From the IMG/VR virus record IMGVR_UViG_3300049988_000118, positions 1 through 64,000 of that record: a stretch of 64,000 nucleotides of DNA. The stretch is one strand, 5' to 3'. The DNA is from a virus. Lineage: Duplodnaviria; Caudoviricetes. Positions within the stretch are counted from its first letter, which is position 1. Every line of letters starts with the position of its first letter. This document shows, one piece after another, positions 468 to 40,538 of the stretch. The translations under genes and the position numbers were made by a program. Below the pieces are notes generated by a model. The model made no database searches, was not told the DNA's origin, and was given only the letters and a program-made list of their open reading frames with translations.

Positions 468-468
468 C

Positions 469-17592: not shown

Positions 17593-17595
17593 CCC

Positions 17596-23993: not shown

Positions 23994-24061
23994 GTGGGCG
24001 CGCGGGTGGCCTGAGAAGTCTGCCTAAGTCGTTGAAGTCCCATGAGGACCGGCGGCGCCAC

Positions 24062-24102
24062 GCGACATGCGCGCGACATTCGATGCGACAACGAACGCGA
24101 CA
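24062..24102 (+). promoter_or_regulatory. Four GCGACA repeats (candidate integrase arm or Xis sites)
   Basis: Copies at 24062, 24073, 24085 and 24097; the same hexamer occurs at 41722 and 41744 near attR. Confidence 0.55.
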
Positions 24103-24116
24103 AAATCGGAGGGCCT

Positions 24117-24329
24117 ATGTCCATGCACCCTGAGCAGGATTTGCTCTACGGCGTCCCTGCCATTGCGACTTTCCTCGGCATCCGGCCACGTCAGGCCAAG
24201 CACCGAGTTGCAACGGGCGAGATCCCCTCGTTCCGCATTGGGGAATCCATCTGCGCTCGCCGCTCAACTCTGACGGCGTGGCTTGCCGAGCGCGAGGCCG
24301 AGGCCCAGCGGAGCCGGTCCAATGCCTGA
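24117..24329 (+). CDS. AlpA/excisionase-like HTH protein
   Basis: LLYGVPAIATFLGIRPRQAKHRVATGEIPSFRIG...LTAWL; first gene inside attL. Confidence 0.8.
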   Translation: MSMHPEQDLLYGVPAIATFLGIRPRQAKHRVATGEIPSFRIGESICARRSTLTAWLAEREAEAQRSRSNA

Positions 24330-24645
24330 CATCGCCAACACCAGCCTGTCCCCGGTCACGGCCAACCCGACCGCCCACCGCAACACTGATGTCGCGCGCT
24401 TCGTCTGCCAGATCGGCGGCATCCGTCTCACGGGTGTCCGGCTGATGCGGATGCCCAACGGCGGCCACTTTGCCCAGCCGCAGTTGCGAACGAAGGGCAG
24501 GGGCACCCCGTCCGTCGGTACGACGATCACCGACCCGAACCTCATGAGCGCCATCACCTACGCGGCGCTCGCCCGCCTCTCCACGACGGACACCGACACG
24601 GCCGACGAAGGCCACAGGCACCGTGCCGTCCGCCGCCGGACTTAA
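24322..24645 (+). CDS. Hypothetical protein, weakly SpoVG-like
   Basis: GIRLTGVRLMRMPNGGHFAQP resembles the SpoVG beta strands. Confidence 0.45.
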   Translation: MPDIANTSLSPVTANPTAHRNTDVARFVCQIGGIRLTGVRLMRMPNGGHFAQPQLRTKGRGTPSVGTTITDPNLMSAITYAALARLSTTDTDTADEGHRHRAVRRRT

Positions 24646-24934
24646 CCCCGACCGCCGAGCCGATCTCGCCGACGAGATCGCCGACCTCCGGCACCGGCTG
24701 GCCTGCATCGAGGCCGAACTAGGCTTAGGCTCGCCAGGATTGGCCCAGGACGGGCGAGACCCGTTCGCCGAGGGCCATCTCACCTTGCAGCGAGCCGCGG
24801 GCGCCTGGGGCGTCACCGACGAGGCGGCGCGGAAGAGGGCGCTTCGTCTCGCATCGCTGGGGATGGCCGAGCGGCGCCGGCCCGGCGGCTGGCGGATCTC
24901 GACAGCCGGTGTACGGTTCTATCTCGGAGGGTGA
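24623..24934 (+). CDS. Hypothetical HTH protein
   Basis: LTLQRAAGAWGVTDEAARKRA HTH-like segment. Confidence 0.55.
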   Translation: MPSAAGLNPDRRADLADEIADLRHRLACIEAELGLGSPGLAQDGRDPFAEGHLTLQRAAGAWGVTDEAARKRALRLASLGMAERRRPGGWRISTAGVRFYLGG

Positions 24935-24937
24935 CCC

Positions 24938-25444
24938 ATGCCGGACTATTCAGCGGAGATCGGCCGGGTGCTGGCCGAGCGCGACGGCGTGGATCCGCAC
25001 GGGGACATCGCCGTGATGACCCGGGCGCTGATGAAGCGATTCCCCGGCGTCACCACCGAGATGATCTTGCGCGGTTGGGAGATCGCACGGGAGATCATCG
25101 CCACCGACGCCAGGATGGCACCGAGCGTCCGGAAGGTGCCGGTGGTGTTCGGGGAGCCGACCTTGGCTTGGCGTTGCACGGAGCTGGATCGGCTGTGGCT
25201 GAGCGCCAACGGCCGCGCCTACTTCATCCGCCCCGCGCTTGAAAACGAGACCTGGACCCTCGGAAAAAGCCTCCCCGCCGGCATGACCGCTCTTGCAATC
25301 GTCCGGGGCACCGATGGGTCGACGATCGCCTTCGCGTGCCGCGACCCCAGCGCGCTGACCGAAGCCTCGGACGATGCCCTTGCCGGCGTGTTCGATGACG
25401 AGATCGACGCGGCCGTCGAGCGGACCGCGCGCGGGCCGGAATGA
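24938..25444 (+). CDS. Hypothetical protein
   Basis: 168-aa ORF with GGAGG RBS. Confidence 0.6.
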   Translation: MPDYSAEIGRVLAERDGVDPHGDIAVMTRALMKRFPGVTTEMILRGWEIAREIIATDARMAPSVRKVPVVFGEPTLAWRCTELDRLWLSANGRAYFIRPALENETWTLGKSLPAGMTALAIVRGTDGSTIAFACRDPSALTEASDDALAGVFDDEIDAAVERTARGPE

Positions 25445-25557
25445 TGGCTCGCGCACGTCAGCGGGCAGGAGAATGGCCCGCCGGAGCTGGCGATAGGTTT
25501 TAGCCCCGGCAGGTAGCGGGTGCGGGGGAAAGCACTCTTGCGGTGATTCCGAGACAG

Positions 25558-25992
25558 CTAGACGGCCGTACCGTCGAACCACGCCAGGACGCGTCCTTCC
25601 AGCAACCCGCGGAAGAGTTCGTAATCACTTGAGGCATATTTCGGCCCGCGACCGGAGGATCTTCCGTTGATCCATGGGTCTTCAGTGCCAATACTGTTTT
25701 CCCACAATCCAAATGCGAAGGCGGTCTGCTTGCAATTTGGGTCGGTCAACGTAACCGTTACGGTAATGCAGCCGCTTACGCCCTCGGCGCGGGCACTCGT
25801 ATATTTCAGATTGCTCGTCTCTGTCGGGTCGCTCGCCGAGATAGCATCAGCCATAGCATTCAGATCATTGAAGATAAAATGATACTTCTGCATTATATGA
25901 GCTTCGAGGCCGGCGCGAGCGACTGGCTCGAATCTGTTAATGTACCGCGCAATACTTGTTCGAAACTCTGAGTAATCCCGCTCGTTAGCCAT
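25558..25992 (-). CDS. Hypothetical cargo protein (low GC)
   Basis: Antisense, AT-richer than its flanks; AAGGAG RBS before MANER. Confidence 0.6.
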   Translation of the reverse strand: MANERDYSEFRTSIARYINRFEPVARAGLEAHIMQKYHFIFNDLNAMADAISASDPTETSNLKYTSARAEGVSGCITVTVTLTDPNCKQTAFAFGLWENSIGTEDPWINGRSSGRGPKYASSDYELFRGLLEGRVLAWFDGTAV

Positions 25993-26058
25993 ACTCACTC
26001 CTTCGGCGCCGGCACCCATACCGCGCTCTGCTTCCCATTCATATCGGAGCATCTCAGC

Positions 26059-26457
26059 ATGCCGAAGTCGAGACGCCGCCCGCAAGCGGCCGATTCCGCG
26101 CGCCTGCCCGTCGTCCCCGAGGACTTCGAGGCGGTGACTGAGGCGGATCGCCGGTTCTTCCTACGGTATCCGCAGCGGTCCTATCGGGTTCGGCATACAA
26201 GCCGGGCAGAGATAGACCAGGGCGCACGCGCCGGCAGTGCGTTCGAGGCGCCTTACGCCAAGTTCCGCTGGTTCACCGCGATCCGACAGGTGGCGCCGGG
26301 GTGTCGGCTGCGTGTGTATCTCCAGGCGCCCGCGCTGTGCGAGACGGACATACCGGAAGCACTGGCGGCCGATATCTACCATCGGTTCGAGGGGCAAAGC
26401 GCTCGCGACACGACAATTCTTATGATGGATGCCCTGAGAAAGGCGGGCGCCCTATGA
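26059..26457 (+). CDS. Hypothetical protein upstream of satellite primase
   Basis: 132-aa ORF, ATGA-coupled to the primase. Confidence 0.6.
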   Translation: MPKSRRRPQAADSARLPVVPEDFEAVTEADRRFFLRYPQRSYRVRHTSRAEIDQGARAGSAFEAPYAKFRWFTAIRQVAPGCRLRVYLQAPALCETDIPEALAADIYHRFEGQSARDTTILMMDALRKAGAL

Positions 26458-28751
26458 CGACCGCCGCCGCGGGTGAGCGCCCGCCGAAACCCGCCTATCA
26501 GCCCTTCACCGGCCTGCCGGACTTGCCGGCGCTGTGCGAGATGCGCGCCCGGCCTCAGTGGCTTGCCTGGGACTACGTGTGGCGCCCGGAAAAGGCGAAG
26601 TGGGACAAGCCCCCAATGAACGCCCGGACGGGCGGGGCCGGCTCGTCAACCGACGCCTCGACGTGGTCCACCTATGACCAGGCCGCGGCGCGTGCCTCTC
26701 GTGAGGGGCTGCCAGGCGTCGGCTACGTCCTGTCGCCGGAGGTCGAGGACAGCGGTGTCGACCTCGACAAGTGCCGCGATCCCGAGACGGGTATACTTCA
26801 GGCATGGGCGCAGGTGGCCGTCGATTTCGCCGAGACCTACACCGAGGTGTCGCCGTCCGGTCGCGGGCTGCGCTTCTTCGTCAAGGGGTTAGTCGACGGT
26901 CGCAAGATCGATGCGGCCCAAGTGGAGATCTACACCAAGGGCCGATACCTGACCGTCACCGGGCAGCATATCCCTGGCACGCCCACGGAGATTCGGGAGG
27001 CGCCCCGGCTCATCGCCTACCTTCAGGAGCGCGCCGACCAGTTCCGAGAGGTCGAGCGTGCCGCCGCTGATCGCGCCCGAGAGAACGAGCGCAAGAAGGC
27101 CGAGAAGCATGCCGCCCGCGAGCCCCGCCCTGAGCCGGGCCCGACAGTCAGCGAGCGGGCCTCGGCGAGCGCTCGGCAGCGTGGTCCGCGCGAGGGCGGC
27201 GACTTCTGGCGAACCGTCAACGACCGCGCCCTTGCGAACCTTGGCGCATGGGTCCCGAGCGTGTTCCCCGGCGCCCGTTGGCAGGCTGGCACAGGCGCCT
27301 ACCGCGTTGAGCAAAGCGCGCTTGGCGAGGGCTACGAGGAAGACCTGTCCCTGCACCCGGACGGCATTCGGGACTTTGGCAGCGGTGACATGGGAGACTC
27401 GCGCGACGGCGCGCGGACGCCGATCGACGTGGTGGAAGCCTACCTGCCGGCGAGCGACGCCGCGGCGGCGGCCATGTGGCTGTGCGATCGGCTCGGCATC
27501 CGGCCCGAGGACATCGGGTGGCGTGGCGGGCGTAACGAGGGTGCGGAGCGCCCGCGGTACGAGGGGCCCCAATCCGATCCGGGCCCCACCGCCGAGTCGC
27601 CGCCGGCATTCCGGGCGCGTCCGTTCGTGTGGAAGGACCCGCACACCCTGCCGATGCGCGAATGGCTTCTCGGCCGGCACCTGATCCGAAAATACACGAG
27701 CGCCACCGTCTCGCCGGGTGGCCTGGGCAAGTCGTCCATCATCATCGTGGACGCGCTGGCCCTCGTGACGGGTCGCAACCTCATCGGACACCAGCCGCAT
27801 GGACGTCACCGGGCGATGATCTGGAACGGCGAAGACCCGATGGACGAATTGCAGAAGCGCATCACGGCGGCCTGCCTCTATTTCGAGATCGACCGGACCG
27901 AGATCGAGGGGCGCTTGTTCGTCAACTCCGGACGCGACGACCCGATCACGGTGGCGAGAATGCACAGGGGTGACGTGGTGATTGCCGTGCCGGTGGTGGA
28001 CGCTCTTAAGGCGACCATCTTGGCGAACGAGATCGACGTCGTGTTCGTGGACCCGTTCGTGTCCTGCCATGAGGTGACGGAGAACGACAACAACGCCATT
28101 GATCGTGTGGCGAAGCTGTGGGGCCGGATCGCAGGCGAAACGAATTGCAGCATCGAGCTCGTCCACCATTCGCGGAAAACCGGCGGCGCCGAGATCACCG
28201 TCGAGGACGCGCGCGGCGCCGTGGCTTTGCTCGCCGCGGTTCGCTCGGCCCGGACCCTCAACGGCATGCAAAGGGACGAGGCTGAGAAGTGGGGTATTAC
28301 GGATCGCGGGCTGTATTTCCGAGTGGACAACGGCAAGGCAAATCTCGCCCCGCCGCCGTCTGAAGGCTCGGCGTGGTTCAAGAAGCAATCCGTTTCCCTC
28401 GGCAACGGCGGCAGCGTTGGGAGCATCGTGCTCGACGGTGACAGCGTTGGCGTGGTGGCAGCGTGGGAGCCGCCGAACCCAATGGATGGCGTGTCAGTCG
28501 ATGATCTGAGAAAAGCTCAGGCAGCGACAAGGGAAGGCCGCTGGCGCGAGAACTCACAGGCTCGCGACTGGATCGGCAAGCCGATCGCCTACGCCCTCAG
28601 GCTCGACGCAGACAACAAGGCCGACCGCGCCCGCATCAAAGGGATGCTCGCCGTCTGGATGAAGACTGGCATGTTCGTGGCCGTCACCGGCAAGGACGAC
28701 AAGGCGATGGACCGGACCTTCATTGAGGTTGGCGAGAGCGCAGTCGACTGA
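26454..28751 (+). CDS. Satellite primase-polymerase fused to AAA_25 (RepA/DnaB-like) helicase
   Basis: AEP motifs (DLDKC, EVSPSGRGLR, YLTVTG); Walker A SPGGLGKS, VFVDP, LVHHSRK. Confidence 0.88.
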   Translation: MTTAAAGERPPKPAYQPFTGLPDLPALCEMRARPQWLAWDYVWRPEKAKWDKPPMNARTGGAGSSTDASTWSTYDQAAARASREGLPGVGYVLSPEVEDSGVDLDKCRDPETGILQAWAQVAVDFAETYTEVSPSGRGLRFFVKGLVDGRKIDAAQVEIYTKGRYLTVTGQHIPGTPTEIREAPRLIAYLQERADQFREVERAAADRARENERKKAEKHAAREPRPEPGPTVSERASASARQRGPREGGDFWRTVNDRALANLGAWVPSVFPGARWQAGTGAYRVEQSALGEGYEEDLSLHPDGIRDFGSGDMGDSRDGARTPIDVVEAYLPASDAAAAAMWLCDRLGIRPEDIGWRGGRNEGAERPRYEGPQSDPGPTAESPPAFRARPFVWKDPHTLPMREWLLGRHLIRKYTSATVSPGGLGKSSIIIVDALALVTGRNLIGHQPHGRHRAMIWNGEDPMDELQKRITAACLYFEIDRTEIEGRLFVNSGRDDPITVARMHRGDVVIAVPVVDALKATILANEIDVVFVDPFVSCHEVTENDNNAIDRVAKLWGRIAGETNCSIELVHHSRKTGGAEITVEDARGAVALLAAVRSARTLNGMQRDEAEKWGITDRGLYFRVDNGKANLAPPPSEGSAWFKKQSVSLGNGGSVGSIVLDGDSVGVVAAWEPPNPMDGVSVDDLRKAQAATREGRWRENSQARDWIGKPIAYALRLDADNKADRARIKGMLAVWMKTGMFVAVTGKDDKAMDRTFIEVGESAVD

Positions 28752-28753
28752 GC

Positions 28754-28879
28754 TTCCACACCCGAGGTTCGGGCCTTCGCGCGTCCACACCCCACCCCAC
28801 ACCCCTATAGGGGTGGTGGTGTGGAATGGAGTTTCCACACTTCCACACCATTCCACACCACGCCTCGCAAGGTGTGGGA
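28754..28879. other. Putative satellite replication origin (TTCCACAC iterons + 14-bp palindrome)
   Basis: About 8 CCACAC/GTGTGG copies and the perfect palindrome ACCCCTATAGGGGT (28801-28814) directly after the primase stop. Confidence 0.65.
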
Positions 28880-28996
28880 GGCGACGACACGGCATGCTGT
28901 CACGATGGCCCTAATGCACGTGGTCGGGGACGATGCGGCTTGATGCATCCCGGGCGACCTGCGGTGTCACCCGGGATACCTGGTTCGTGAGCGGCG

Positions 28997-29365
28997 CTAG
29001 ACCCGATTGAACTCGCGTGCGTGCAAGTTGCTACCCGCGCGCACCATCGTCACGTTGAGCCGCTTGAAGCACGCCAGGAAGTCGGCGAGCGACAGGGGAA
29101 CGTCGACAGCGACCAGATCGATCGGCCCGTCCTGAGGCATGGCCTTCGTGGCCTCGTCGTAGCTGTTGCCCAGGGCATAGTGGGCCGTCAGCTTAGTGGA
29201 CCCGTCTACCTCGCTCTGCCAGAGGTCGAAGGCCACGAGGAAGCGGCCGGCAGGGGCAAGCCCGCGGGCAGCGAGCGTCGCCCCCAAGTCATCGACGGCG
29301 GCATTGTCGGCCGCGGCCGAGCCCTCCCAATCGCCGTACTGCGTCTCAGCCTGCAAGCGCTCCAT
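28997..29365 (-). CDS. Hypothetical cargo protein
   Basis: Antisense ORF with GGAG RBS; acidic, globular-looking. Confidence 0.55.
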   Translation of the reverse strand: MERLQAETQYGDWEGSAAADNAAVDDLGATLAARGLAPAGRFLVAFDLWQSEVDGSTKLTAHYALGNSYDEATKAMPQDGPIDLVAVDVPLSLADFLACFKRLNVTMVRAGSNLHAREFNRV

Positions 29366-29453
29366 GACCATGCTCCGTACAACCGTGGGCGGACGGCATA
29401 CGACCAAGCGGAGGCCGGGCCTAGGGGCCAAGCGGCGATCGTCACGGAGACCC

Positions 29454-29574
29454 GCACGTTCCTCGGTGGGTAGGCCCTCCGACCCCGCCCCGCATGCTGC
29501 GCCTCACTACCGCAGCGCACAATGGGTCCTCCGGAGACACCCCACCCCTCTGCGGGCAGAGTTGCTCCCGACTT
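29454..29574 (+). repeat. Satellite copy of the prophage cos region (121 bp, 100% identical to 19844-19964)
   Basis: Base-by-base identity at offset 9610; GGGTCCT at 29524-29530, dyad at 29548-29561; upstream of the satellite terS. Confidence 0.9.
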
Positions 29575-29656
29575 TCGGCTCTCTGCAAGTTTGCCAAAAA
29601 TAGGGGGGGCCGCTTCTTTTCGGTCCCTCGAAGCCTCGCTCCCGATGGAGAAACCG

Positions 29657-30175
29657 ATGAACGAGACCGCTTCGAACGCCGAGATGATGGAGCTGTTCGG
29701 GGTCTCAGACCGGACCGTCGCGAAGCACGCCGCCAGCGGGATATTCGTGCGTGTTGGCCGCGGCCAGTACGACGTGAAGGCCTCGATCCGCACCTACGCT
29801 GAGCACCTCCGCAGCGCCGCATCCGGGCGGCCCAGCACCAACGAAGAGCTGCGAGCCGAGAAGATTCGACTGACCGCCGCCCAAGCTGACCGCGCAGAGA
29901 TGGACCGGGACGCCGAGGCCGAGGTGATGGTCAACGTGAAGGAATTCGACGACGCGTGGGGCCATGAAATCGTCAAGCTTCGGCAGGGGTTTCTCGGCTT
30001 GGCAAATAAGATCGCGGAGGCTCACCCCCACTTCACGCGCCACGAGATCCACACCATCGACGAAGTGATCCGCGCGATGATGGAGCGGGTTGCCGACGAT
30101 GCCGATACACGCCTGGAAATCGCTCAGGCCAAAGAAGACAAGGGCGGAAAGTCGCGGCGCCGGTCCCGCCGCTGA
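29657..30175 (+). CDS. terS: Satellite terminase small subunit (Nu1-like)
   Basis: wHTH (MMELFGVSDRTVAKHAASG...GQYD), ELRAEKIRLTAAQADRAEM coil; C-terminus aligns with prophage TerS. Confidence 0.88.
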   Translation: MNETASNAEMMELFGVSDRTVAKHAASGIFVRVGRGQYDVKASIRTYAEHLRSAASGRPSTNEELRAEKIRLTAAQADRAEMDRDAEAEVMVNVKEFDDAWGHEIVKLRQGFLGLANKIAEAHPHFTRHEIHTIDEVIRAMMERVADDADTRLEIAQAKEDKGGKSRRRSRR

Positions 30176-30276
30176 ACGCGTAATTCGATTTAATGGTTGG
30201 TTTTGGTTGGTTTTCCCCGGTCCAAAGTTGGTTTTCTCTCGTTGAATTAGGCCCTCGTCCGCCGGACACTTCCGGC

Positions 30277-30624
30277 ATGACAACCGCCAGCTTCCCCCGC
30301 TTCAGCACAACGCTGGACCACGAGACGGCCCGCGCCGTCACCCTCGCCGCCGCCGAACGGATGCAGAGTCGCGCCGACTTCATTCGTGACGCGGTGGCCC
30401 ACGAACTGAGCGTCCGACAGGCCGCCGCCGACGCCGTGCGATCCGAGGTCGAGCGCCAGGGAGCCGCCGCCCGCCGCCTCACCGCCGCACTGGATCGGGG
30501 GCCGGGTGCAACCTCCCGTCTCACCGCCTCGCGCGTCGCCGCGCTCGCCCGGCCGGCCGCGCACACCATCCCCAACATCTCCACCCTCGACGCGGCCGAA
30601 GCCGCCGGAAAGGCATGCCCATGA
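30277..30624 (+). CDS. Ribbon-helix-helix (CopG-like) protein
   Basis: RFSTTLDHETARAVTLAAAERMQSRADFIRDAV fits the RHH pattern. Confidence 0.6.
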   Translation: MTTASFPRFSTTLDHETARAVTLAAAERMQSRADFIRDAVAHELSVRQAAADAVRSEVERQGAAARRLTAALDRGPGATSRLTASRVAALARPAAHTIPNISTLDAAEAAGKACP

Positions 30625-31706
30625 AATCGCCGACGAAGCTGCTCAAGGCCACCGCCACGGCGTTCGGCCTTGCCCGTAAGGCCACCGACGCCGAGGTCAT
30701 CGAGGCTGCAATCGCGGAGGCACGCACGGCCATTGCGGAGGGCGAGCGCGACGGGGCCGAGGCCCAAGCGCGCTACGACGAATCCCTGCTCGCCGATGAC
30801 GGCGACCCGGCCTTGATGCTCAACGCGATCCAGGCCGCCAAGATCAAGCGGGACCGCGGCGAGGCCCAGGTGGCCACCCTCACCGTGCGCCTGAACGATG
30901 TGCGGGAGGCCAGCGAGCAAGAACGCCGCGGCGCGATCTATCGGGATGCGGAGGCAAAAGCCGAAGCCGCCCGCGTTGCCCTGGTTCAGGAATACCCCGC
31001 CATCGCCCGACAGATGCATGGGCTACTCCGGCTTCTGGCCGAAGCCGAGATCAGGGTAGCGCAGGCGAACGCGGACCTACCGCACGGGGCCGCGCCCATC
31101 GCTTCGCCCGAGTGGCAGGTTCGGTATCCCGGGGCCAACCTGCCGCCGCTGCCGGCCCCAACGATGGTGAAGCTTTGGGCGCCCATGGGTGGAAGCGAGC
31201 CCGTGCCGGAGGAAGACCAGCAACGGGTTCGCCCGATGCCCGGTCGAGCGGAGTGGGTCGGCGCCCTCCGGCGTGATGACGGCTCCACGCTGGAGTGTCA
31301 TCGCCGTACCTTTCGGAAGTCGCTGGAATACGAGAAGCCCCACGGGGATTGGGGCACCAATCTGGCCGGGTCCGTGTGCCTGCCGGCCCTGTATCCCTTC
31401 ACCCCGCCCGTGTGGCCGCAGAACCTCATCAACGGCAAGACATTCGACCGATCTGCTGATGTTGCGCTGTCGACCTTGGATGATGTTGAGCCCCTGAGCG
31501 CGGCAGTCTGGCGACGAGCGGAGGCGATTTTGAAGGTCGTCACCCGCTTCCGGGAGGAGGGCCGCCCCCTCAACGTAGTGGACGACGGAGCACCGCGCGT
31601 ACCGCGCCACCAGCCTGTCACGGATCTCGCCCTTCGCCACCAGCCTGTCACGGATCTCGCCCTTTACGACGAGGATGACGGCGAAGCGGAGGGCGAGGCA
31701 GCATGA
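30621..31706 (+). CDS. Helical coiled-coil protein of unknown function
   Basis: Ala/Glu-rich heptads in the N-terminal half; coupled to its neighbours. Confidence 0.65.
   Translation: MKSPTKLLKATATAFGLARKATDAEVIEAAIAEARTAIAEGERDGAEAQARYDESLLADDGDPALMLNAIQAAKIKRDRGEAQVATLTVRLNDVREASEQERRGAIYRDAEAKAEAARVALVQEYPAIARQMHGLLRLLAEAEIRVAQANADLPHGAAPIASPEWQVRYPGANLPPLPAPTMVKLWAPMGGSEPVPEEDQQRVRPMPGRAEWVGALRRDDGSTLECHRRTFRKSLEYEKPHGDWGTNLAGSVCLPALYPFTPPVWPQNLINGKTFDRSADVALSTLDDVEPLSAAVWRRAEAILKVVTRFREEGRPLNVVDDGAPRVPRHQPVTDLALRHQPVTDLALYDEDDGEAEGEAA
31605..31664 (+). repeat. In-frame 30-bp tandem duplication (RHQPVTDLAL x2)
   Basis: CGCCACCAGCCTGTCACGGATCTCGCCCTT twice. Confidence 0.9.
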
Positions 31707-31966
31707 TGCGCGTCGTGCCGAAAGTCGATGGCGCCGAAGACGAACGGCGGGCGGCCAAGCGCCAACGGCTCACCGAAACCCTGGCCCTGCCGGAAGCGCA
31801 GGGCAGGGGCAACCTCCTCCCCTTCGCCCTGGCGTGCCGTTTCGATCTTCCCATGGCCCGCGTGAAGCAAGCCCTGGTCGACGCACCCGAGATGACCGAC
31901 CCGAACGAAGTTGCCGAGTGGGCGGAGGCATACCCCGTCCGCTCAAAACTGGAGATCGTGAAATGA
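31703..31966 (+). CDS. Hypothetical protein
   Basis: 87-aa coupled ORF. Confidence 0.55.
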   Translation: MMRVVPKVDGAEDERRAAKRQRLTETLALPEAQGRGNLLPFALACRFDLPMARVKQALVDAPEMTDPNEVAEWAEAYPVRSKLEIVK

Positions 31967-33219
31967 ACGACTACGATGGCCGCCGCCTGATCTGCGAAGG
32001 TGCCTTGGTCCTCTATGGTGACGTGGGCGAGGCCGGATGGGCGGACGTCGATGGCTTCACCGCCTCCGATGTGCTGTTCGCGCTCGCGGAGATCGGCGCA
32101 GACCGTGACGTGACGGTGCGGATCAACTCTGGCGGCGGCAATGCCTTCGAGGGCCTCGCCATCCACGCGATCCTCTCGGCGCACCGCGGCAAGATCACCA
32201 CCGTAGTCGAGGGCATCGCCGCGTCCGCCGCCTCCATCATCGCGATGGCGGGGAAGGACCGGATCGTCGCGCCCGGGTCGCTCATGATGATCCACGACCC
32301 GTCGGGCCTGACGGTCGGCACGGCGGACGATCACGACGACACCGCCGCCATGCTGCGCACCCTGTCGGATGCGCTTGCGACCGTCTACGCGACCGCCACC
32401 GGCCGAGCGAAGGCCGTCATCCTGGAGGAGATGAAGGCCGAGACGTGGCTCGACGCCGACGAATCCCTTGCCCGGCGGTACGCCACGGCGATCGGAACCG
32501 CCCCCGCCTCGACCGCCATGCTCCCGTTTCCGTTCGGAGCCTATGCGAAGGCACCCGCCCACCTCGTCGCCCTTGCGGAAACGAAGGGGTGGAGCGCCCG
32601 CCAGTTCACCGCCTCGCACGCCCTGGGCAAGTCGCGTTCCGAGCGCCACGCCGCTGCACCGCGCTCCTTCGATAAGGCGGCCACCGCGTCGGCGCCTGAC
32701 GCCATCGCCCAGACGTGCGCTCTTGCCGGGTGCCCGGAGAGGGCCGCCGAGTTCATTGCGGCTGGGGCGTCGTCGGCCGACGTAGCGAAGCAGCTGCTAG
32801 CGGAAGCGGTGACCGGCACGGCCACCCAGGGCGCGAGCCAGAACCGTCTGTCTCGCGCCGATTCGGCGTCGGTCGCGACCCTGTGTCTCGACGCGAGCAT
32901 TCCCGAGATGACGCCGACCATCCTCGCCCGAGCCACCACCGTGGATCAGGCCAAGGCGCTGATCCAGACCGGCACCGAAATGAAGGACGTCGTGACCCTG
33001 GCGCGCCGGCACTGCCCGAGCGTGCCCGAGGATTTGGCGGTCACAGCGTTCGCCGCCGGAAAGACGGTCAAGCAGGTCCGCGACGAGGCCGTGAACCTGA
33101 TGGCGGAAGAGGGCGACCGAACCGAAGTCCAGGGGAGCCGCCACCCCGCCGCGATCAATTCCGGCCCCGGGGCGGCGAAGCGGAACATGCTGGCCCAACT
33201 CGCGCGGGCCACCCGCTGA
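31963..33219 (+). CDS. Satellite ClpP-type head maturation protease fused to scaffold domain
   Basis: RINSGGG, GIAASAASIIAMAG (Ser), MIHDP (His), ETW; paralog of 42203..43411. Confidence 0.9.
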   Translation: MNDYDGRRLICEGALVLYGDVGEAGWADVDGFTASDVLFALAEIGADRDVTVRINSGGGNAFEGLAIHAILSAHRGKITTVVEGIAASAASIIAMAGKDRIVAPGSLMMIHDPSGLTVGTADDHDDTAAMLRTLSDALATVYATATGRAKAVILEEMKAETWLDADESLARRYATAIGTAPASTAMLPFPFGAYAKAPAHLVALAETKGWSARQFTASHALGKSRSERHAAAPRSFDKAATASAPDAIAQTCALAGCPERAAEFIAAGASSADVAKQLLAEAVTGTATQGASQNRLSRADSASVATLCLDASIPEMTPTILARATTVDQAKALIQTGTEMKDVVTLARRHCPSVPEDLAVTAFAAGKTVKQVRDEAVNLMAEEGDRTEVQGSRHPAAINSGPGAAKRNMLAQLARATR

Positions 33220-33410
33220 TGGCCCTGGCAACCTCCGCCCTCCGCGTCCGCATCGTGGACACCCCGTCGGCCGGCGCTCTCCTCGACCTCGCCGACCGCT
33301 TGCGCCGACTCGCCCCGTCGCCCCGCGATCCGGAGCGCTTCCACGTCGAGAAGTCCGAGATTGAGGGCGAACTGCGCCGGCTCGCCCTGCCGCCCGCCCG
33401 GAGATCCTAA
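33219..33410 (+). CDS. Small hypothetical protein
   Basis: TGATG overlap; 63 aa. Confidence 0.55.
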   Translation: MALATSALRVRIVDTPSAGALLDLADRLRRLAPSPRDPERFHVEKSEIEGELRRLALPPARRS

Positions 33411-33413
33411 ACA

Positions 33414-33851
33414 ATGCCCAAAAGCTCCACTCGGAAGCGCGCCCCTGCCGCGCGGTCCCCCGCCCCGGACCTCCCGCCGCCGCGCTTCGTCATGCCGGTG
33501 CCGGATCATACCGTTCCGCTGATCCACCCGGTCGAGTACGCCGGCCGAACCTTCGCCAGCATCACCCGTCGACGCCCGTCTAGCGCCGTGCTGGGCCGGT
33601 GGTTCGAGCAGTTCACCGAGGGCGCGGCGGTCCCGGGCGACACGAATCTCAACGTGCCGATTTTCGTCGACGAGGCCGGCGACCTCGTACCGGATGCGGT
33701 GCTCGGCTTTCTCGACGACGATGACCGGCAGGTCGTGTTCGAGGATGCTGACCGTTTTTTTCCCAAGCGGCTCGCGGTTGCCCTGGAAGCTCTGACGCAG
33801 GACTCAGCCCCTTCGTCTGGCGAACCTGCCGAGCCGACATCATCCGCTTGA
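33414..33851 (+). CDS. Satellite tail assembly chaperone (TAC)
   Basis: Aligns with prophage TAC (L..P.E..G......RR; PIF.D..G..PD.....LDDDD; F.P.R); lies directly before a TMP. Confidence 0.8.
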   Translation: MPKSSTRKRAPAARSPAPDLPPPRFVMPVPDHTVPLIHPVEYAGRTFASITRRRPSSAVLGRWFEQFTEGAAVPGDTNLNVPIFVDEAGDLVPDAVLGFLDDDDRQVVFEDADRFFPKRLAVALEALTQDSAPSSGEPAEPTSSA

Positions 33852-33943
33852 TAGGGGGCTCGCGGGCTGAGCTCGACGCCATGACCTGGGGCGAGTTCAC
33901 CCGCGAGTGGTTCGAAGCCAAACGCGTTTCTGAGGGCCGCTGA
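33755..33943 (+). other. -1 programmed frameshift (T TTT TTT) and gpE'/gpT-like extension of satellite TAC
   Basis: The -1 frame is open from the slippery site to TGA 33941-33943 and encodes RADIIRLIGGSRAELDAMTWGEFTREW. Confidence 0.8.
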
Positions 33944-33944
33944 G

Positions 33945-36635
33945 ATGTCGACACGCACCGCAACCCTGATCGCCAACTTGGTCGATCAGGTCTCAGGTCC
34001 GGCCAAGGGCATGGCCGGCGCCCTGAAAAGCACCGCATCCGCCCTCGATGCACTGAAGGCCAAGGCCGGCAAGATCGACGCCTTCAAGCAGGCGAGCAAG
34101 TCGCTGGACGACGCCGCGCAGAAGTTCAGGCTGGCGCAGCAGAACGTGCGCAAGATCAAGGCCGAGATGGAGGCCGGCGGCGACGGCGCCAAAAAGCTCG
34201 GGAGCGCGCTGAAGGGCGCCGAGCGCAACGCCGATGCGGCGCGGGCCGCGTTCAAGAATCAGGGGCAGGAGGTCCGCGCGTTGCGCACCGCCCTGGAGCA
34301 GGCCGGCGTGCCGCTCAACGCGCTCGCCGCGCACGAGCGCCAGTTGCAGACCCAGATCAACCACACCACCGAGGCGCTCAAGCGACGGAAGAAGGCGCTT
34401 GCGGATGTTGGCGCCGGGGCGCCGGCGAGCCGGATGGGGCCAGCCGCAGGCGGGCACGGGCCTCAAGCAGGGCGCGGGGGCGGTGGCACGGGCGCCGCCG
34501 GGAGCGCCGTAGTGGGCGCCGGCGTGGCGCGCTTCGGCGTGGCAGCGGCCGGAATCGGTGGGGGTGCCTACATCATCGGCGATCAGATCCGCCGGGCTGC
34601 GAAGTCGTCGATAGATTTCGAGCGCAGCATGATCGAGGTCGGCAAGGCCACCGACGCATCAGGGGCCGATCTCGAAAAATACTCCGAGGGCATCCTGGCG
34701 CTGGCCCGCGCCACCGGCAAGACGAAGGAAGACCTCGCCTCGATGCTCTCCTCGGCGGGCTTTGCCGGCCGCCCGAAGGAGGAGCTAATGAACTTCACCG
34801 AGTACGCGGCGAAAGCGACCGTGGCTTGGGGCACGAGCGCCGAAGACACCGGCCAGGCGTTGGCCGAGATCGGCAACATCTACGACGCGAATCAGAAGCG
34901 CATCGAGGAGATCGGCGACGCGATCAACACGATGGCGGACAGCTCGGCATCGAAGGAATCCGACCTACTCGACTTCATGCGTCGGGCGGGTGCCTCGTCG
35001 AAGCAGGCCGGCATCTCAGCCGAGCATATGCTGGCGTTCGGCGCCTCGATGAAGGAAGTGGGCGTCCGGACCGACGTGGCCGCCACCGGCTTCGAGGCAC
35101 TCCTGAACGTGATGAAGCTCGGCGAGGAGTTTTCGAAGAAAGCAGGCGAAGGTCTGAAGGATCTCGGCGTCAACTCCACCAAGATGCGCAAGGCGTTCGT
35201 CGCCAAGCCGGTCGAGACGATGCTTGGCCTGCTGGAAAAGATCAACAAGGTCGCGGACCCGCTCAAGAAAGCGGAGATTATGACCAACCTTTTTGGCAAG
35301 GAATATCAGGACGACATCGCCAAGATGCTCAACGCCTTGCCGAAGGTGAACAAGTACATCGGCATCATGAGCGATCAGGCGAAGATTGCCGCCGGTGGCG
35401 TCCGGTTCCAGTTCGGTCAGAACCTCGACAAGGACGTGTCGAAGATCGACCGGGCCACGCAATCCATCGACGTTCTCTACAAGCGCATCGGCGACCCGAT
35501 CAAGATCCAGATCGGCGGCATCTCCGAGCAGGTCAATACGCTCGTCGACAGCCTGGAAAAGGGCGACACGATCCTTCAGCGCCTGGTGAAGCGCCTCAAC
35601 GGCGGCGAAGCTGGCAAGCCGATCGAGCTGCCCGAAATGAATGGCGAAGGCGGCCTGGAAAAATGGTTCGAGGAAAAGCTGCCCTGGCTGAGCGGCAAGA
35701 AGTGGAACGACGAGGTCGACAAGCGGATCGGCAAGACCGGCGCTGACACGGACCGGATGAACCGCGAGGACGCCGACGGGCGGCGCGCCGCGGCCGAGCG
35801 GGAGGTGCTCGACCGCCCGGCCGACATCGAGACGAAGATCCAGCGCCAGCGCCGCGCACAGGATCAGGCCCGGCGGGAAGCGGTCGGGGCTACGGGGATG
35901 CGGCGCTCGCTGGCGGTGGAGCAGATCGGCAAGTCCGACGCCGAGGTGAAGCGCTTGGAGGGCGAGCTTGCCAAGGCTTGGGAGGCGATCGGAGCCCTTC
36001 GCGCTCAGCACAAGCGGGACAAGGGGGCGTTCAGCGTCGACGGTCCGGCTGCGAAGGACGTGGAGACCATCGGCCCGGGCCGCTTCGGGCTTGGCCTACA
36101 CGGCACGGACGTGCTGCCCTCGCGCCGGGTGCCGCTACCGCCGCCGCGACCCGCAGGGCTGACGCCCGGCGCAGAAATCACCATGCCGGAGATCAAGGTC
36201 GAGGTGGACACCTCCGGCTTCGATGAGGCCAGCCGCAAGGCCGATGAACTCGGTGCGCGGACCATCGCGCCGAAGGGCGACGGCGCCGGCTTGGCCCCCA
36301 TCGGGACAGCGGCCGACGAGGCCAAGGCGAAGCTCTCTGAAATCAATGCCACCACCGTCACACCGAAGGGAGATGCCGCAGGGCTCGCGCCGCTCGGGAC
36401 GGCCGCCGACGAAGCCAAGGCAAAGCTTTCGGCCCTCGCCGGGGTGAGCGTCGCGCCGACCGTCGACGCCTCATCCATCGCGGCGGCAGAAACCGCAGTA
36501 GATCGCCTCCTGGCGAAAATCGCCCGGGTCGGCCCAGCCCTGAAAGGCGCCAACGGGGCTGTTGCCTCGGGTGTCGTCCGTTCCGGCAACGTCGCCCAGC
36601 GCCTCCAGAACACTTTCACCGACAAGGGGATGTGA
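33945..36635 (+). CDS. Satellite tail tape measure protein (TP901-type core)
   Basis: AAKSSIDFERSMIEVGK...LALARATG core; N- and C-termini match the prophage TMP. Confidence 0.9.
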   Translation: MSTRTATLIANLVDQVSGPAKGMAGALKSTASALDALKAKAGKIDAFKQASKSLDDAAQKFRLAQQNVRKIKAEMEAGGDGAKKLGSALKGAERNADAARAAFKNQGQEVRALRTALEQAGVPLNALAAHERQLQTQINHTTEALKRRKKALADVGAGAPASRMGPAAGGHGPQAGRGGGGTGAAGSAVVGAGVARFGVAAAGIGGGAYIIGDQIRRAAKSSIDFERSMIEVGKATDASGADLEKYSEGILALARATGKTKEDLASMLSSAGFAGRPKEELMNFTEYAAKATVAWGTSAEDTGQALAEIGNIYDANQKRIEEIGDAINTMADSSASKESDLLDFMRRAGASSKQAGISAEHMLAFGASMKEVGVRTDVAATGFEALLNVMKLGEEFSKKAGEGLKDLGVNSTKMRKAFVAKPVETMLGLLEKINKVADPLKKAEIMTNLFGKEYQDDIAKMLNALPKVNKYIGIMSDQAKIAAGGVRFQFGQNLDKDVSKIDRATQSIDVLYKRIGDPIKIQIGGISEQVNTLVDSLEKGDTILQRLVKRLNGGEAGKPIELPEMNGEGGLEKWFEEKLPWLSGKKWNDEVDKRIGKTGADTDRMNREDADGRRAAAEREVLDRPADIETKIQRQRRAQDQARREAVGATGMRRSLAVEQIGKSDAEVKRLEGELAKAWEAIGALRAQHKRDKGAFSVDGPAAKDVETIGPGRFGLGLHGTDVLPSRRVPLPPPRPAGLTPGAEITMPEIKVEVDTSGFDEASRKADELGARTIAPKGDGAGLAPIGTAADEAKAKLSEINATTVTPKGDAAGLAPLGTAADEAKAKLSALAGVSVAPTVDASSIAAAETAVDRLLAKIARVGPALKGANGAVASGVVRSGNVAQRLQNTFTDKGM

Positions 36636-36693
36636 CGACGGCAGTCGGCCGCGCAGAGACGGTCAGTAAATGGCTTGTGACGATCTGGGCAGC

Positions 36694-37038
36694 CTACCGC
36701 GCGTCCACGATGCGACAGGACGCGGCGCCGAGAGTTTTCCCGTCCGCCTCGGCGATGCCGATGAAGTTCCGGCCTGTGACGGTAGCGCCCGGTTTGATGT
36801 TGCGGATAACCGAGGCCGCTTCACCCACGGGAGACCCGCCCGGACTTGCTACGGAGCAACTGACCTCGGCGACCTCCACCCGCGCCGAGCCGGCATTCCT
36901 CACCTGAATCACGGTCTCGACGGTCTCGCCGATGGCGCGCGGGCGTCCGGCCGTGACCGAGAGGTCATCCGCCATCCCCGCCGCGTGTGCGGCGTACGAT
37001 GACACGATCAGAGCGAGGGCGAGCAGGGCAGGGCGCAT
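36694..37038 (-). CDS. Secreted Ig-like hypothetical protein (FxLYD-like)
   Basis: Signal peptide MRPALLALALIVSSYAAHA; beta-rich with Cys pair. Confidence 0.6.
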   Translation of the reverse strand: MRPALLALALIVSSYAAHAAGMADDLSVTAGRPRAIGETVETVIQVRNAGSARVEVAEVSCSVASPGGSPVGEAASVIRNIKPGATVTGRNFIGIAEADGKTLGAASCRIVDAR

Positions 37039-37081
37039 GCCGGCAAGATAGCCGCCGGGGTGCAGTTGTCGAGACTAGCCC

Positions 37082-37234
37082 TCAACCGCGTACGGCATGC
37101 TGTTCACCCGCCGGGGCAGGCCGCTCGGCATGTGGATGCTTCCGGTTGAATCGGTACTTCAGCAGCGCGAAAAAACCGCCGCCTCCGACCACTGCCAAGC
37201 CGAGAGCGGACCATAGGAGCAGGGTAGGTGTCAC
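37082..37234 (-). CDS. Small single-TM protein (50 aa)
   Basis: GTG start overlapping the upstream GGAG; LLLWSALGLAVVGGGGFFALLKYR. Confidence 0.5.
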   Translation of the reverse strand: MTPTLLLWSALGLAVVGGGGFFALLKYRFNRKHPHAERPAPAGEQHAVRG

Positions 37235-37237
37235 GGA

Positions 37238-37609
37238 TCACTCCTCTGATTGCATCACAAGGAAATTTAGAACGTACGGGAAGATATGGAAGCCCAAAGA
37301 AATAACACACCATTGAACCGCGTTTCCGTCCAGAACCGCATCCGCGTCCCGAACGAACGGCACGATCGCCGCTGCCCCTAGAATGCCGGCCGCGAGAGTG
37401 TTGCAGAGCGCGTTGAAGTGCTTGAGGCACTCATTGATGCGCTTGGCGTCAAGCTTCCGCAATGCTGGGTTATCAGACGATGGCGGCGGTTTTCCTGAAC
37501 CAAAACTTGGAGAATTTATTTTTCGAGCCAGTGCCTCTGCTTCACCTTCAGCGAAGCTGTCAATCGATCGAAGGGGTGTTGTGCTTTTCTTAATGGCGCC
37601 AGTCATCAA
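37238..37609 (-). CDS. Two-TM membrane protein (cargo)
   Basis: Hydrophobic segments TLAAGILGAAAIVPFV and WCVISLGFHIFPYVLNFLV. Confidence 0.6.
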   Translation of the reverse strand: MMTGAIKKSTTPLRSIDSFAEGEAEALARKINSPSFGSGKPPPSSDNPALRKLDAKRINECLKHFNALCNTLAAGILGAAAIVPFVRDADAVLDGNAVQWCVISLGFHIFPYVLNFLVMQSEE

Positions 37610-37974
37610 CGTGACTGCCTTAAGATATTATAATTCATCAAATAAATCTCTCCCTTCGACGATCTAAAGGACATGATCACGAAGGATAGATAAAACTTGT
37701 GCGTTTCATCTTGAGCAAAGCTTTGGGTAATTCGCGCTCCGGTCGAGATTATATTGTCTCGACTTCGACGATGCACAAGAGATAGTATTTGATCATCGTC
37801 CAATTGAATTGTGGTTTCGGTATCCGTGCTTTCGTCGATACTCAACTTAAATCTGAATCGATATTCAGGATCGTCGTCGAAGGGCATCATAACGATGGTT
37901 TCTTCGGCGCCAAGAATAATTGAGCCTGAATGAATCAGCTCTCTTTTTCCGACTATGGCAGTGGGCCGAGTCAT
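37606..37974 (-). CDS. Hypothetical cargo protein (low GC)
   Basis: AT-rich ORF coupled to 37238..37609. Confidence 0.55.
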   Translation of the reverse strand: MTRPTAIVGKRELIHSGSIILGAEETIVMMPFDDDPEYRFRFKLSIDESTDTETTIQLDDDQILSLVHRRSRDNIISTGARITQSFAQDETHKFYLSFVIMSFRSSKGEIYLMNYNILRQSR

Positions 37975-38445
37975 ATGCAGATCCCAAGCGCGATCGGTGG
38001 GCAAGCCGCACACGGCTCGATCCAAGCGCTGTGCCTCTACCCTACGCGCACGACGAAACCCCCATCGCCTTGCAGGGCGTGGGGTTGTCGTGTCATGATG
38101 AACGTAGAGCCTGAGAACTCTCGCGACGGTCCCTTGCAGGGGATAGCGTCGCATCCTGTGACGGAAGCCCAACACCTTGCAGGGTGATGTGCCCCGTAAT
38201 GAACGTGCTCACCTCCCGGTGAGCGCGACCGGCTCACTATGCCGGGAGTGCGGCGACACGGTCAAGCAGAAATGCTCGACTGCGATACAAGAGCCCTTCG
38301 GGGTAAAGGTCGCCGCGCACGTTCTCACAGGCGTGTTCTCAGCCTCCCGGCGCCAGCACCGCATGCTGGCGTGGCCGAAAGCCCCTGAGAAGGCTCGAGG
38401 CCCCGGCCCTGAGAAGCCGGTTCGTACCTGTGAGAACCGAGATCC

Positions 38446-39135
38446 ATGACCACCACACAGACCCGCACGGCGCCTTCCCGGCGCGTGCCGCCGGCTGCCC
38501 GTCAGCCCGGCCCGGTGACGCTCGCCATACGCGCGCTGCGCCCGAACGAAGCCCCCACCTGGGAACAGCGTCAACGGGAGATCGATGCGGAGGAGCGGGC
38601 CACCCTGCGCGCCCTTCGCAAGCGCGTCGCTCAAGCCGTGTCGGACGGCATCGATTTCCTTGACGCAACCGGCAGGGATCCGGACCTCGATGCGGACTAC
38701 ACGACCACTGAGCGCGCCCCGGACGGCGGCCTACACACCGTCGGCCGCAGCACCGATGACGAGCCGAGCCTATGTGGCATCGGCGGCCACTTCGCGTTCG
38801 GGCATCAGCACGAGTTCCCGCAGACGGGTGGCGGCTGCGGTGAAAACGCCCACGACCTTGAGGGTGAGGACGAGCACGGGAGCGACTGCGACCGTGGGGA
38901 GGATTCGCTAGGCTCGCTCGGGGGCACCGCAAATGCTGTCGGCCACTCCCAACTGAATTGGGCGGGCGGCGGTGCGAACGATCTGGAGGCCGTGGACGAG
39001 GACGGCGGCGATATCCAAGACGCCCCTCACGATGGTGACGAGCGCGAGGACGGCGACGACAACGGCATCGGCGACCTTGAAGGCTTGCACGAACAGTTCG
39101 CCGGCACCCGGTACGCCTTCGCTGGTGCCGTATGA
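38446..39135 (+). CDS. Acidic Asp/Gly-rich hypothetical protein
   Basis: 229-aa ORF with DEPSL and DDNGIGD acidic motifs. Confidence 0.65.
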   Translation: MTTTQTRTAPSRRVPPAARQPGPVTLAIRALRPNEAPTWEQRQREIDAEERATLRALRKRVAQAVSDGIDFLDATGRDPDLDADYTTTERAPDGGLHTVGRSTDDEPSLCGIGGHFAFGHQHEFPQTGGGCGENAHDLEGEDEHGSDCDRGEDSLGSLGGTANAVGHSQLNWAGGGANDLEAVDEDGGDIQDAPHDGDEREDGDDNGIGDLEGLHEQFAGTRYAFAGAV

Positions 39136-39593
39136 GCGCCCCCGCATCGCGCCGGGGATTCCTCTCCGGTCTCGCCGTCCTGCCGTCTCTCACGGTAGTG
39201 GCAACTGCCGCTGCAAGCCCCGACGCGCCGTTACTTGATTTGGCGCCGCGCCTTGTCCCGCTGCTGGACCGATACGACCGGCTTTGGGCGGCGCAGGGTG
39301 GCACCTACGAGGCCGGCATCGCTGAAGTGCAGCGAGCAACGAGGAGAGGGGCATCTTGGGGGGAGGCACAATCGGCTTCTCCCTTGTGGCGGAAGTACAT
39401 GAGCGCCAGGGCGCCGGCCGATCGCATAGGGGACATAATCGACCCTCTGATTGAACCTTTATGGGATCATCGCGCGGTCACCGTGCCGGGCCTGTTACTC
39501 AAAGCCAGGATCGCCGCGACCTTCGATAGCTGGGAAGGCGACGTCTTCGATGACGTTCGCGCCATGGTGAAGGCAGGTACTCTCCTGACTTAA
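39132..39593 (+). CDS. Hypothetical protein with Tat-like N-terminus
   Basis: SRRGFL motif followed by a hydrophobic stretch. Confidence 0.6.
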   Translation: MSAPASRRGFLSGLAVLPSLTVVATAAASPDAPLLDLAPRLVPLLDRYDRLWAAQGGTYEAGIAEVQRATRRGASWGEAQSASPLWRKYMSARAPADRIGDIIDPLIEPLWDHRAVTVPGLLLKARIAATFDSWEGDVFDDVRAMVKAGTLLT

Positions 39594-39748
39594 CCCCCGG
39601 CCCGGCCGCCCGCACGGACGCCTCAGATCTGAGGGCGCGGTGCCGTACCGCGCCAATCCGGAGCCCGGCCGGGCCTCACGAACGCCGCTCGCGCAATCCC
39701 GCGCGGGCGGCATTCGCCGTACCGCACGGCGCAATTCGTGAGGATGCC

Positions 39749-40537
39749 ATGACCACGACACCCACGGTCCACATCACCGACGGCAAACCCATGGCGGACA
39801 GCCGTGAGATCGCCGCCACTTTCGGCCGGCAGCACAAAGACGTGCTCCGAGCCTATCGAGAGCTCGCATGCTCCGCGGATTTCAGGCAGCGCAATTTTGC
39901 GCCGTTTCATTCCAAGGACTTAAGCGGGTCCACCCTCTCCCACGTCCTGATGACCAAGAACGGGTTCGCCTTCCTCGTCCTCGGCTTCACCGGCGCGCCG
40001 GCCGCCGTCTTCAAGGAGGCGTACATCGAGCGGTTCGACGCGATGGAGGAGGCGCTACGGGGCAAGGCGATCCTGGCCGTTCCGACCACCTTCGCCGAGG
40101 CCCTACAGCTTGCCGCCGACAACCAACGGCAGGTTGAAGCGCAGGCCGCACAGATCGCCGTCCTGGCCCCACGCAGCGAGGCCCTGGCGACCATCGCCGA
40201 CGGGGAGGGGACGTTCTGCATCCGCGACGCGGCCAAGATGCTTCAGGTCACGGAAAGCGGCCTGACGGCCTACCTGTCGGGCAACGACTGGATCTATCGA
40301 CGCGAGCCCGGCGGGCCATGGGTGGCGACCGCCCGGCGGTTCGGACAGGGCTGGATCACCACGAAGGTGATTCCGGTCGAGGTCGGCAACGGCAAGGTCT
40401 GGAACAAGCCGCAGGCCCGCATCACGAGCGCCGGCTTGACGGTCCTGGCGATGCGCTTGGGCAAGCCCGTGCCGGCGGGCCTCGCAGCATCGGCCCCGCT
40501 CATCGAACACGCGGCTCGGCCGCAGGGAGGACACTGA
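39749..40537 (+). CDS. rha: Rha-family regulator fused to antirepressor KilAC/ANT domain
   Basis: DSREIAATFGRQHKDVLR, MTKNGFAFLVLGFTG, YIERFDAME; C-terminal FCIRDAAKMLQ...WIYRR. Confidence 0.88.
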   Translation: MTTTPTVHITDGKPMADSREIAATFGRQHKDVLRAYRELACSADFRQRNFAPFHSKDLSGSTLSHVLMTKNGFAFLVLGFTGAPAAVFKEAYIERFDAMEEALRGKAILAVPTTFAEALQLAADNQRQVEAQAAQIAVLAPRSEALATIADGEGTFCIRDAAKMLQVTESGLTAYLSGNDWIYRREPGGPWVATARRFGQGWITTKVIPVEVGNGKVWNKPQARITSAGLTVLAMRLGKPVPAGLAASAPLIEHAARPQGGH

Positions 40538-40538
40538 G

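Follow-up and report, generated by a model that had tools for sequence, protein, structure and literature searches.

A phage satellite that lacks capsid genes encodes a predicted protease-scaffold homologous to that of its helper

Why would a genetic element that has no capsid gene of its own encode a protein of the kind that helps to build phage heads? The question is raised by P0001 (31963..33219, + strand), a gene for a 418-aa protein in a 64,000-nt stretch of viral DNA (the window) that forms part of a 73,988-bp IMG/VR record, IMGVR_UViG_3300049988_000118. P0001 lies within a satellite that is inserted in the portal gene of a second element, the helper phage, and the helper encodes a homologous protease-scaffold, P0002 (42203..43411, +; 402 aa). 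An earlier note on this DNA, drawn from the sequence alone, had proposed that P0001 competes for the helper capsid protein and redirects capsid size. We favor, at a probability of about 0.6, the reading that P0001 is a helper-matched protease-scaffold targeted to the capsid interior, which would co-assemble with the gpE-type capsid protein of the helper and compete with the products of the helper scaffold gene. Binding and competition, like any effect of P0001 on capsid size, are inferences from the comparisons that follow.

The satellite (23922..41821, +) is a 17,890-bp insert that splits the helper portal gene into an N-terminal part (22763-23931) and a C-terminal part (41822-42188). A 10-bp direct repeat, AACATCAGAC, flanks the insert at 23922-23931 and 41812-41821; when the flanks are joined at this repeat, they form a single continuous open portal frame, and excision of the satellite would rebuild the helper gene. 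The late region of the helper runs in the order TerS, TerL, portal, protease-scaffold, gpD-like decoration protein, gpE-family capsid protein, and contractile tail. The satellite encodes an HTH_17 Xis-like protein, a primase-helicase, TerS, an RHH protein, a 363-aa coiled-coil protein, an 87-aa protein, P0001, a 63-aa protein, a tail chaperone, an 896-aa tape measure, an Ant/Rha-like regulator, and an integrase. Searches with Pfam and PHROG profiles found no open reading frame (ORF) for a capsid protein, a portal, or TerL within the satellite (23932-41821). An exact 121-bp duplicate stands upstream of each terS gene, at 29454..29574 (+) in the satellite and at 19844-19964 in the helper. Given the lack of capsid, portal, and TerL genes together with this exact copy of helper DNA, we regard the insert as a satellite-type element that is linked to this helper and probably travels in capsids made of the helper capsid protein. 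P0001 was thus rightly described as a second, satellite-borne protease-scaffold. The host is of the Methylobacterium type, an alphaproteobacterium.

The P0001 ORF holds 418 intact codons with a coding-type GC content at third codon positions (GC3, 0.80), and the N-terminus of the protein aligns with the starts of its homologues. Its first codon overlaps the end of the preceding 87-aa gene, and overlapping start and stop codons are a feature of the operon. P0001 and P0002 align over their full length (45% identity, E 7e-91). As the earlier note had claimed, the ClpP domain is close to that of the helper (57% identity over residues 1-215) and the C-terminal scaffold parts align as well (41% identity). 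Both proteins match the Pfam family CLP_protease (PF00574), with E 2.4e-27 for P0001 (residues 37-169) and E 4e-30 for P0002, as well as phrog_94, 'head maturation protease' (E 3.5e-53 for P0001). The catalytic motifs that had been recognized are indeed kept: in alignments, Ser88 (AAS) and His111 (IHDPSG) fall on the catalytic Ser and His of solved ClpP chains. The position of the ClpP Asp is taken by Glu160, and this Glu is invariant in 80 homologues. Judged by these conserved features, P0001 is an intact ClpP-type (S14) head protease (domain at residues 1-180, 31963..32502, +) fused to a helical scaffold, and protease activity is predicted. Membership in the lambda gpC-type family did not hold up; the domain is an S14 ClpP domain (PF00574), and a match to PF01343 (S49) is absent.

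An AlphaFold2 model built from an 80-row alignment (mean pLDDT 84) gives the overall anatomy of the protein. In the N-terminal half, the ClpP fold (1-180) is followed by a conserved FPF segment with a helix that extends to residue 207, and then by a disordered linker (216-241). Three helices form the 'extra' unit, unit S (244-284; 32692..32814, +); after a short linker, three more helices (298-350) lead from unit A into unit B. Unit A (298-335) and unit B (336-390) make up a phage-type scaffold core (32854..33132, +) that is homologous to a nested scaffold in the helper gene and to a stand-alone scaffold in the phage contig L010, both discussed below. The C-terminal end consists of unit B helices (358-390), a disordered stretch (391-399), and a terminal helix (402-415). 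This helix belongs to an amphipathic tail (residues 402-418; 33166..33216, +) of the NM..AQL subtype, which we presume to be a capsid-binding peptide.

The repeat character of this region varies from unit to unit. A hidden Markov model (HMM) made from the aligned unit column detects residues 305-334 of P0001, which were unseen in training, with an i-E of 6.5e-5. Unit S resembles unit A with a z-score of 4.8 in a shuffle test, a score matched by 4 of 2000 shuffles, and unit B is just distantly similar (z 2-3). Two full-length units of the S/A type are present in 2 of 120 homologues, P0001 and one other. The additional related unit described in the earlier note, with its three helices, therefore stands; the accompanying idea that it simply replaces the low-complexity linker of the helper protein does not, since that linker carries a nested start. 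No Pfam family was found that covers the scaffold module, the tail mini-proteins of related satellites, or the 63-aa gene.

P0002 consists of a ClpP domain, the low-complexity linker, unit A, unit B, and the tail. Within the linker, a perfect AGGAGG (42888-42893) sits 5 nt upstream of the ATG of codon 233 (42899), which is in frame and shares the stop codon of the full-length gene (42888..43411, +). This start predicts a nested Nu3-like product that would contain unit A, unit B, and the tail. At the equivalent place in P0001, there is no internal start with a comparable Shine-Dalgarno sequence. The helper would then make free scaffold as well as protease-scaffold, and the satellite the fusion only.

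Where do the parts of P0001 come from? Its closest homologues (P0003-P0008 and P0010, from Methylobacterium) are 284-376 aa long and are laid out as a ClpP domain, an FPF segment, a short linker, one unit, and one or two tail motifs of the form [SN]M.R.L..G. Region-wise BLAST places residues 1-180, 181-244, and 240-290 of P0001 nearest to these satellite-type ClpP proteins; the protease domain is 66-78% identical to them versus 60% to the helper. For residues 291-418, the nearest proteins are of the phage type (34-50% identity), with no satellite-type match. Given these region-wise affinities, unit S is the ordinary unit of the satellite lineage, and the unusual part of P0001 is the attached A+B module. 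The comparisons show P0001, at the level of sequence affinity, as a mosaic in which a satellite-lineage ClpP domain and unit S (residues 1-290) are joined to a complete phage-type A+B module (residues 291-400) and a tail helix of the helper subtype.

The most closely related satellite, L011, points to an exchange. It is 75% identical to the window in DNA across the TerS, RHH, and coiled-coil genes; homology then ends near 31571, and a block of 82% identity sets in again from 33164, a position that falls within the final 18 codons of P0001. The tail is therefore the feature that the satellites share, and the upstream part of the fusion has been exchanged. We also considered whether the satellite had recently acquired the scaffold module from this particular helper, and rejected this, given that the module is 41% identical versus 100% for the copy upstream of terS. 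No record of contigs encoding P0002 or P0003 was found.

The A+B+tail module also occurs on its own. L010 is a phage contig with an intact 531-aa portal, an S49 protease, and a capsid protein that is 92% identical to that of the helper. In its head-gene region (5897-8926), a separate gene for a 196-aa protein follows that for the protease and precedes those for the decoration and capsid proteins. Its product aligns with the C-terminal 170 residues of the helper protein (45% identity) and with residues 240-418 of P0001, and the invariant columns of the three-way alignment, including LARR and GK, span unit A, unit B, and the tail. By this measure of conservation, the A+B+tail module is a true internal scaffold for the gpE-type capsid clade. 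As a separate observation, the protease type in L010 is swapped (S49 for ClpP), while the scaffold module and the capsid protein remain together.

The tail itself is the most widely shared element; the same motif is found at the end of helper-type scaffolds, of satellite ClpP proteins, and of satellite mini-proteins. In 13 phage contigs in which scaffold and capsid protein could be paired, the tail subtype tracks the capsid clade: capsid proteins at least 82% identical to that of the helper (43801..44847, +; PF03864, lambda gpE family; presumably targeted by both scaffolds) pair with an NMRAQLE..G tail, and those that are 63-68% identical mostly pair with an SM.REL.RAG tail. The P0001 tail is NM..AQL, the subtype of the helper clade, and several other satellite ClpP proteins carry SM.REL. 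This pattern is suggestive of tails matched to helper capsids, in which the tail peptide would be the capsid-binding site.

We also predicted the complex between the helper capsid protein and residues 291-418 of P0001. The median score was 0.47, compared with 0.00 for the best of three controls; scores of 0.60 or below count as a weak pass. Of 80 solved complexes, 58 reach the pass mark, as do 2 of 110 mismatched pairs, and scores at or below 0.60 were obtained for just 7 of the 80 solved complexes, as well as for both of the mismatched pairs that passed. Across runs, at least 74% of contacts agree and the pLDDT of the partner is at least 72; the prediction yields no interface.

In the mechanism that we favor, the satellite would excise, after which the late genes of the helper would provide the gpE-type capsid protein. 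P0001 would co-assemble inside helper procapsids through its tail and probably through units A and B as well, and there it would compete with the helper protease-scaffold and with the abundant nested Nu3-like scaffold, supplying its own protease for maturation. It may also bias capsid geometry. On this account, P0001 would be an accessory, helper-matched adaptation of this satellite and no core gene of its family.

The place of P0001 within this family can be followed through two handles, the coiled-coil protein and the ClpP homologues; nine related elements were read. The family core consists of TerS, the coiled-coil protein (here 363 aa, 30615-31706), the 87-aa protein (31703-31966), the tail chaperone, and the tape measure, usually with the RHH protein and a 63-67-aa protein. 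The first two genes upstream of P0001 (30615..31966, +) thus belong to the core, and P0001 itself occupies a variable slot, defined as the interval that separates the 87-aa gene from the 63-aa gene or the chaperone. In L003, L004, and L005, the slot holds a ClpP domain with one unit and the tail; the arrangement of ClpP, units S, A, and B, and tail is found in this window only. L009 and L011 instead carry a protease-less protein with the tail motif, of 121 aa or 84 aa (the latter in L011). L008 has a pair of small ORFs, of which one carries two tail motifs and the other resembles the N-terminal coil of a scaffold; a 247-aa ORF in this slot was set aside as a wrong-frame artefact that is rich in Arg and Pro, the real frames being those of the small scaffold-like ORFs. 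In L012/L013 and L014, the slot is empty. Counted over about nine elements, a ClpP-scaffold thus occurs in four, a tail-only mini-protein in three, and an empty slot in two. The tape measure of L012 is 67% identical to that of the present helper over 529 aa.

The coiled-coil protein, the sole large unassigned ORF of the satellite, belongs to a large unannotated family, with 240 representative clusters (50% identity) at E <=0.001. Its model (pLDDT 82) shows a helix hairpin of about 90 residues and a small beta domain. It has no match in Pfam or PHROG, and its best fold match in the PDB with Foldseek has an E of 0.24. A related-locus search with a three-sequence alignment of this protein returned two genome loci and no viral contigs. 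We considered the coiled-coil protein as a divergent portal or capsid protein and rejected this, given the hairpin and beta domain and the absence of fold, Pfam, and PHROG matches. Nor is a reading of the 87-aa protein as a 'Nu3-like' scaffold peptide supported; it has no match to the unit HMM (E about 1).

How well does the favored account of P0001 withstand its alternatives? Several points weigh against it. Some members of the family have nothing in the slot, and its function is therefore dispensable for the lifestyle of the family. The scaffold module did not come from this helper (41% versus 100% identity), and it is an assumption that the module fits the capsid protein of this helper. The association of tail subtype with capsid clade is confounded by shared ancestry. 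Finally, the complex prediction is just a weak pass and no proof of binding. A role for P0001 as a competing protease-scaffold nevertheless seems likely to us, and a role as a size determinant less likely. In the latter case, the extra unit would alter scaffold geometry such that small heads (e.g., T=4) form around a single 17.9-kb genome. The satellite amounts to about 0.32 of the remaining record (17,890 of 73,988 bp, leaving <=56.1 kb), a ratio close to those of P2/P4 and 80alpha/SaPI1, although a genome of one-third size equally fits trimers packaged in full-size heads. Few proteins (2 of 120 homologues) have the three-unit architecture; the extra unit, however, is ordinary for satellite-type ClpP proteins. 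CpmB sets a precedent for a competing internal scaffold (PMC5644958), and EPIP satellites with a scaffold and a tape measure form smaller capsids (PMC12822802). Yet the ClpP-scaffold is not part of the family core, with L011 having just an 84-aa tail protein and L012 and L014 an empty slot. On balance, we consider it doubtful that P0001 sets capsid size.

If the capsid is remodeled at all, the agent could instead be the coiled-coil protein, perhaps together with the 87-aa protein, acting as an external or internal cage and leaving P0001 a role in maturation or compatibility. Both genes are kept in every family locus examined, near TerS and the chaperone and tape measure, and the coiled-coil family is large, at 240 clusters. 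Sid and TcaP, known size determinants, are helical scaffolds (PMC7552001, PMC10945586), but the coiled-coil protein matches neither these two nor any other protein associated with capsids, in fold or in sequence, and its role could equally concern the tail or DNA. We hold this explanation only tentatively, but the pair is at least as good a candidate for any remodeling as P0001. A different proposal is that P0001 is a weapon of interference, a capsid-targeted protease that degrades helper scaffold or capsid protein early and cuts helper yield without producing useful small heads. The invariant catalytic residues of satellite ClpP proteins, the retention of the targeting tail by all satellite forms, and the fact that each molecule bears a protease when there is no nested scaffold product would all fit. 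However, the satellite needs those same capsids to spread, and relatives hold protease-less tail proteins in the same slot, making the tail, not proteolysis, the common denominator; we find interference improbable. Least probable is that P0001 is a functionless leftover of recombination, from a phage ancestor or from exchange with the helper. The mosaic structure, with L011 homology breaking at about 31571 and resuming at 33164, and a protein cluster with a single member could be read in this way, but the frame is intact over 418 codons with a GC3 of 0.80, the invariant catalytic and structural residues are retained, the start is translationally coupled, and the structure model is confident.

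Other features of the record complete the picture of the two elements. Phage genes are found at both record ends (window 1-19000 and L007, which is positions 64001-73988 of the record), including those for dCMP deaminase, a Sak4-like protein, a Cas4-type exonuclease, a helicase, an endolysin, and a DNA polymerase; no helper integrase was found in the record. Helper TerS lies at 19884-20621 and the lambda-gpA-type TerL at 20605-22506, and the contractile tail genes encode a sheath, a tube, a chaperone, a 968-aa tape measure, and a gpD-like tail protein. In the satellite, TerS lies at 29522-30175 and the integrase at 40539-41741. Identity in the 121-bp duplicate ends abruptly on both sides, and the adjacent proteins are just 37-45% identical. 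Several other satellite and helper genes are paralogues: the tail chaperones (33414-33851 in the satellite, 58367-58822 in the helper) are 32% identical, and the tape measures (33945-36635, encoding the 896-aa protein, and 58924-61830) are 44% identical across the last 91 aa. The primase-helicases of the satellite (26301-28751) and the helper (12216-14618) share 46% identity over about 350 N-terminal residues. The conserved 63-aa gene (33219..33410, +) directly follows P0001, sharing the last base of its stop codon, and is 70-88% identical in L005, L008, and L011. Two low-GC patches stand out from the average of 66%, at 37000-38400 (52%) and 14500-16500 (44-56%). The first of these, in the satellite, contains two minus-strand ORFs without a Pfam match and may be cargo.

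Satellites are known to remodel capsids taken from their helpers in three ways: CpmB is a small internal scaffold unrelated to that of the helper, Sid and TcaP build external cages, and Ccm is a capsid homologue. The use of a protease-bearing homologue of the helper scaffold would, if this is true, represent a fourth route. In the literature we found no report of a satellite without capsid genes that carries a protease-fused homologue of the helper scaffold, nor of a family slot that alternates between protease-scaffold fusions and tail-only proteins. In its boldest form, which strikes us as rather unlikely, the proposal is that this is an undescribed alphaproteobacterial satellite family with a 'capsid-interior' slot, in which the captured scaffold module outcompetes the nested scaffold of the helper and sizes heads for 17.9 kb. 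A homologue of the helper scaffold that bears a protease would then, for the first time, be a size redirector. The system would extend satellite biology to Methylobacterium-type hosts, and its slot would offer a natural series for asking which scaffold parts determine capsid geometry, from the tail only, to protease with one unit and tail, to protease with three units and tail, with sister satellites having cut the same slot down to what would be a bare capsid-binding tail. Even without an effect on size, the conserved tail motif would be a candidate for a peptide that targets proteins to gpE-type shells.

How does P0001 compare with systems that are already understood? The closest parallel is SaPI1 CpmB and the 80alpha scaffolding protein SP (gp46), for which C-terminal coat binding is established; the two have a C-terminal helix-and-hook in common and are rivals for a single capsid-protein site (PMC5644958). 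As CpmB does, P0001 would end in the C-terminal capsid-binding peptide of the helper scaffold, and the tail-only proteins of L009 and L011 (84-121 aa) are close in design to the 72-aa CpmB. In contrast to CpmB, P0001 is homologous to the whole helper protease-scaffold (45% identity), is six times larger, and includes an active-looking ClpP protease. Unlike in SaPI1/80alpha, the host here is alphaproteobacterial and the helper has a contractile tail together with a head of the lambda type.

The helper gene resembles lambda gpC/Nu3 in its position between the portal and the decoration and capsid genes, in its gpE-family capsid protein, and in its nested in-frame start. It differs in that its protease is an S14 ClpP (PF00574), not S49 (PF01343), and P0001 differs further in having no nested start; because the protease is S14 and not S49, the likeness is one of architecture only. 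The earlier note had also treated C-terminal coat binding as established for lambda Nu3, which goes beyond the published evidence: the Nu3-E contact is just a new two-hybrid hit, without C-terminal mapping (PMC3224144).

Among satellites with head-morphogenesis genes, capsid-forming phage-inducible chromosomal islands (cf-PICIs) likewise carry such genes derived from phages, with a protease or scaffold among them (bioRxiv 10.1101/2022.09.08.507074). These islands encode their own capsid protein, portal, and connectors, whereas the present element lacks all three and has to rely on the helper for capsid protein. The EPIP satellites of Mycolicibacterium have TerS, a scaffolding protein, and a tape measure, and their heads are smaller than those of their helper (PMC12822802). 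The same three functions occur together here, but host phylum and sequences are unrelated, no ClpP fusion is reported for EPIPs, and the EPIP scaffold is not conserved across groups. Lastly, P4 Sid and PLE TcaP are satellite proteins that act on the helper capsid protein during assembly (PMC7552001, PMC10945586), as P0001 would. Sid and TcaP form external cages without homology to helper scaffolds; P0001, in contrast, is a homologue of an internal scaffold.

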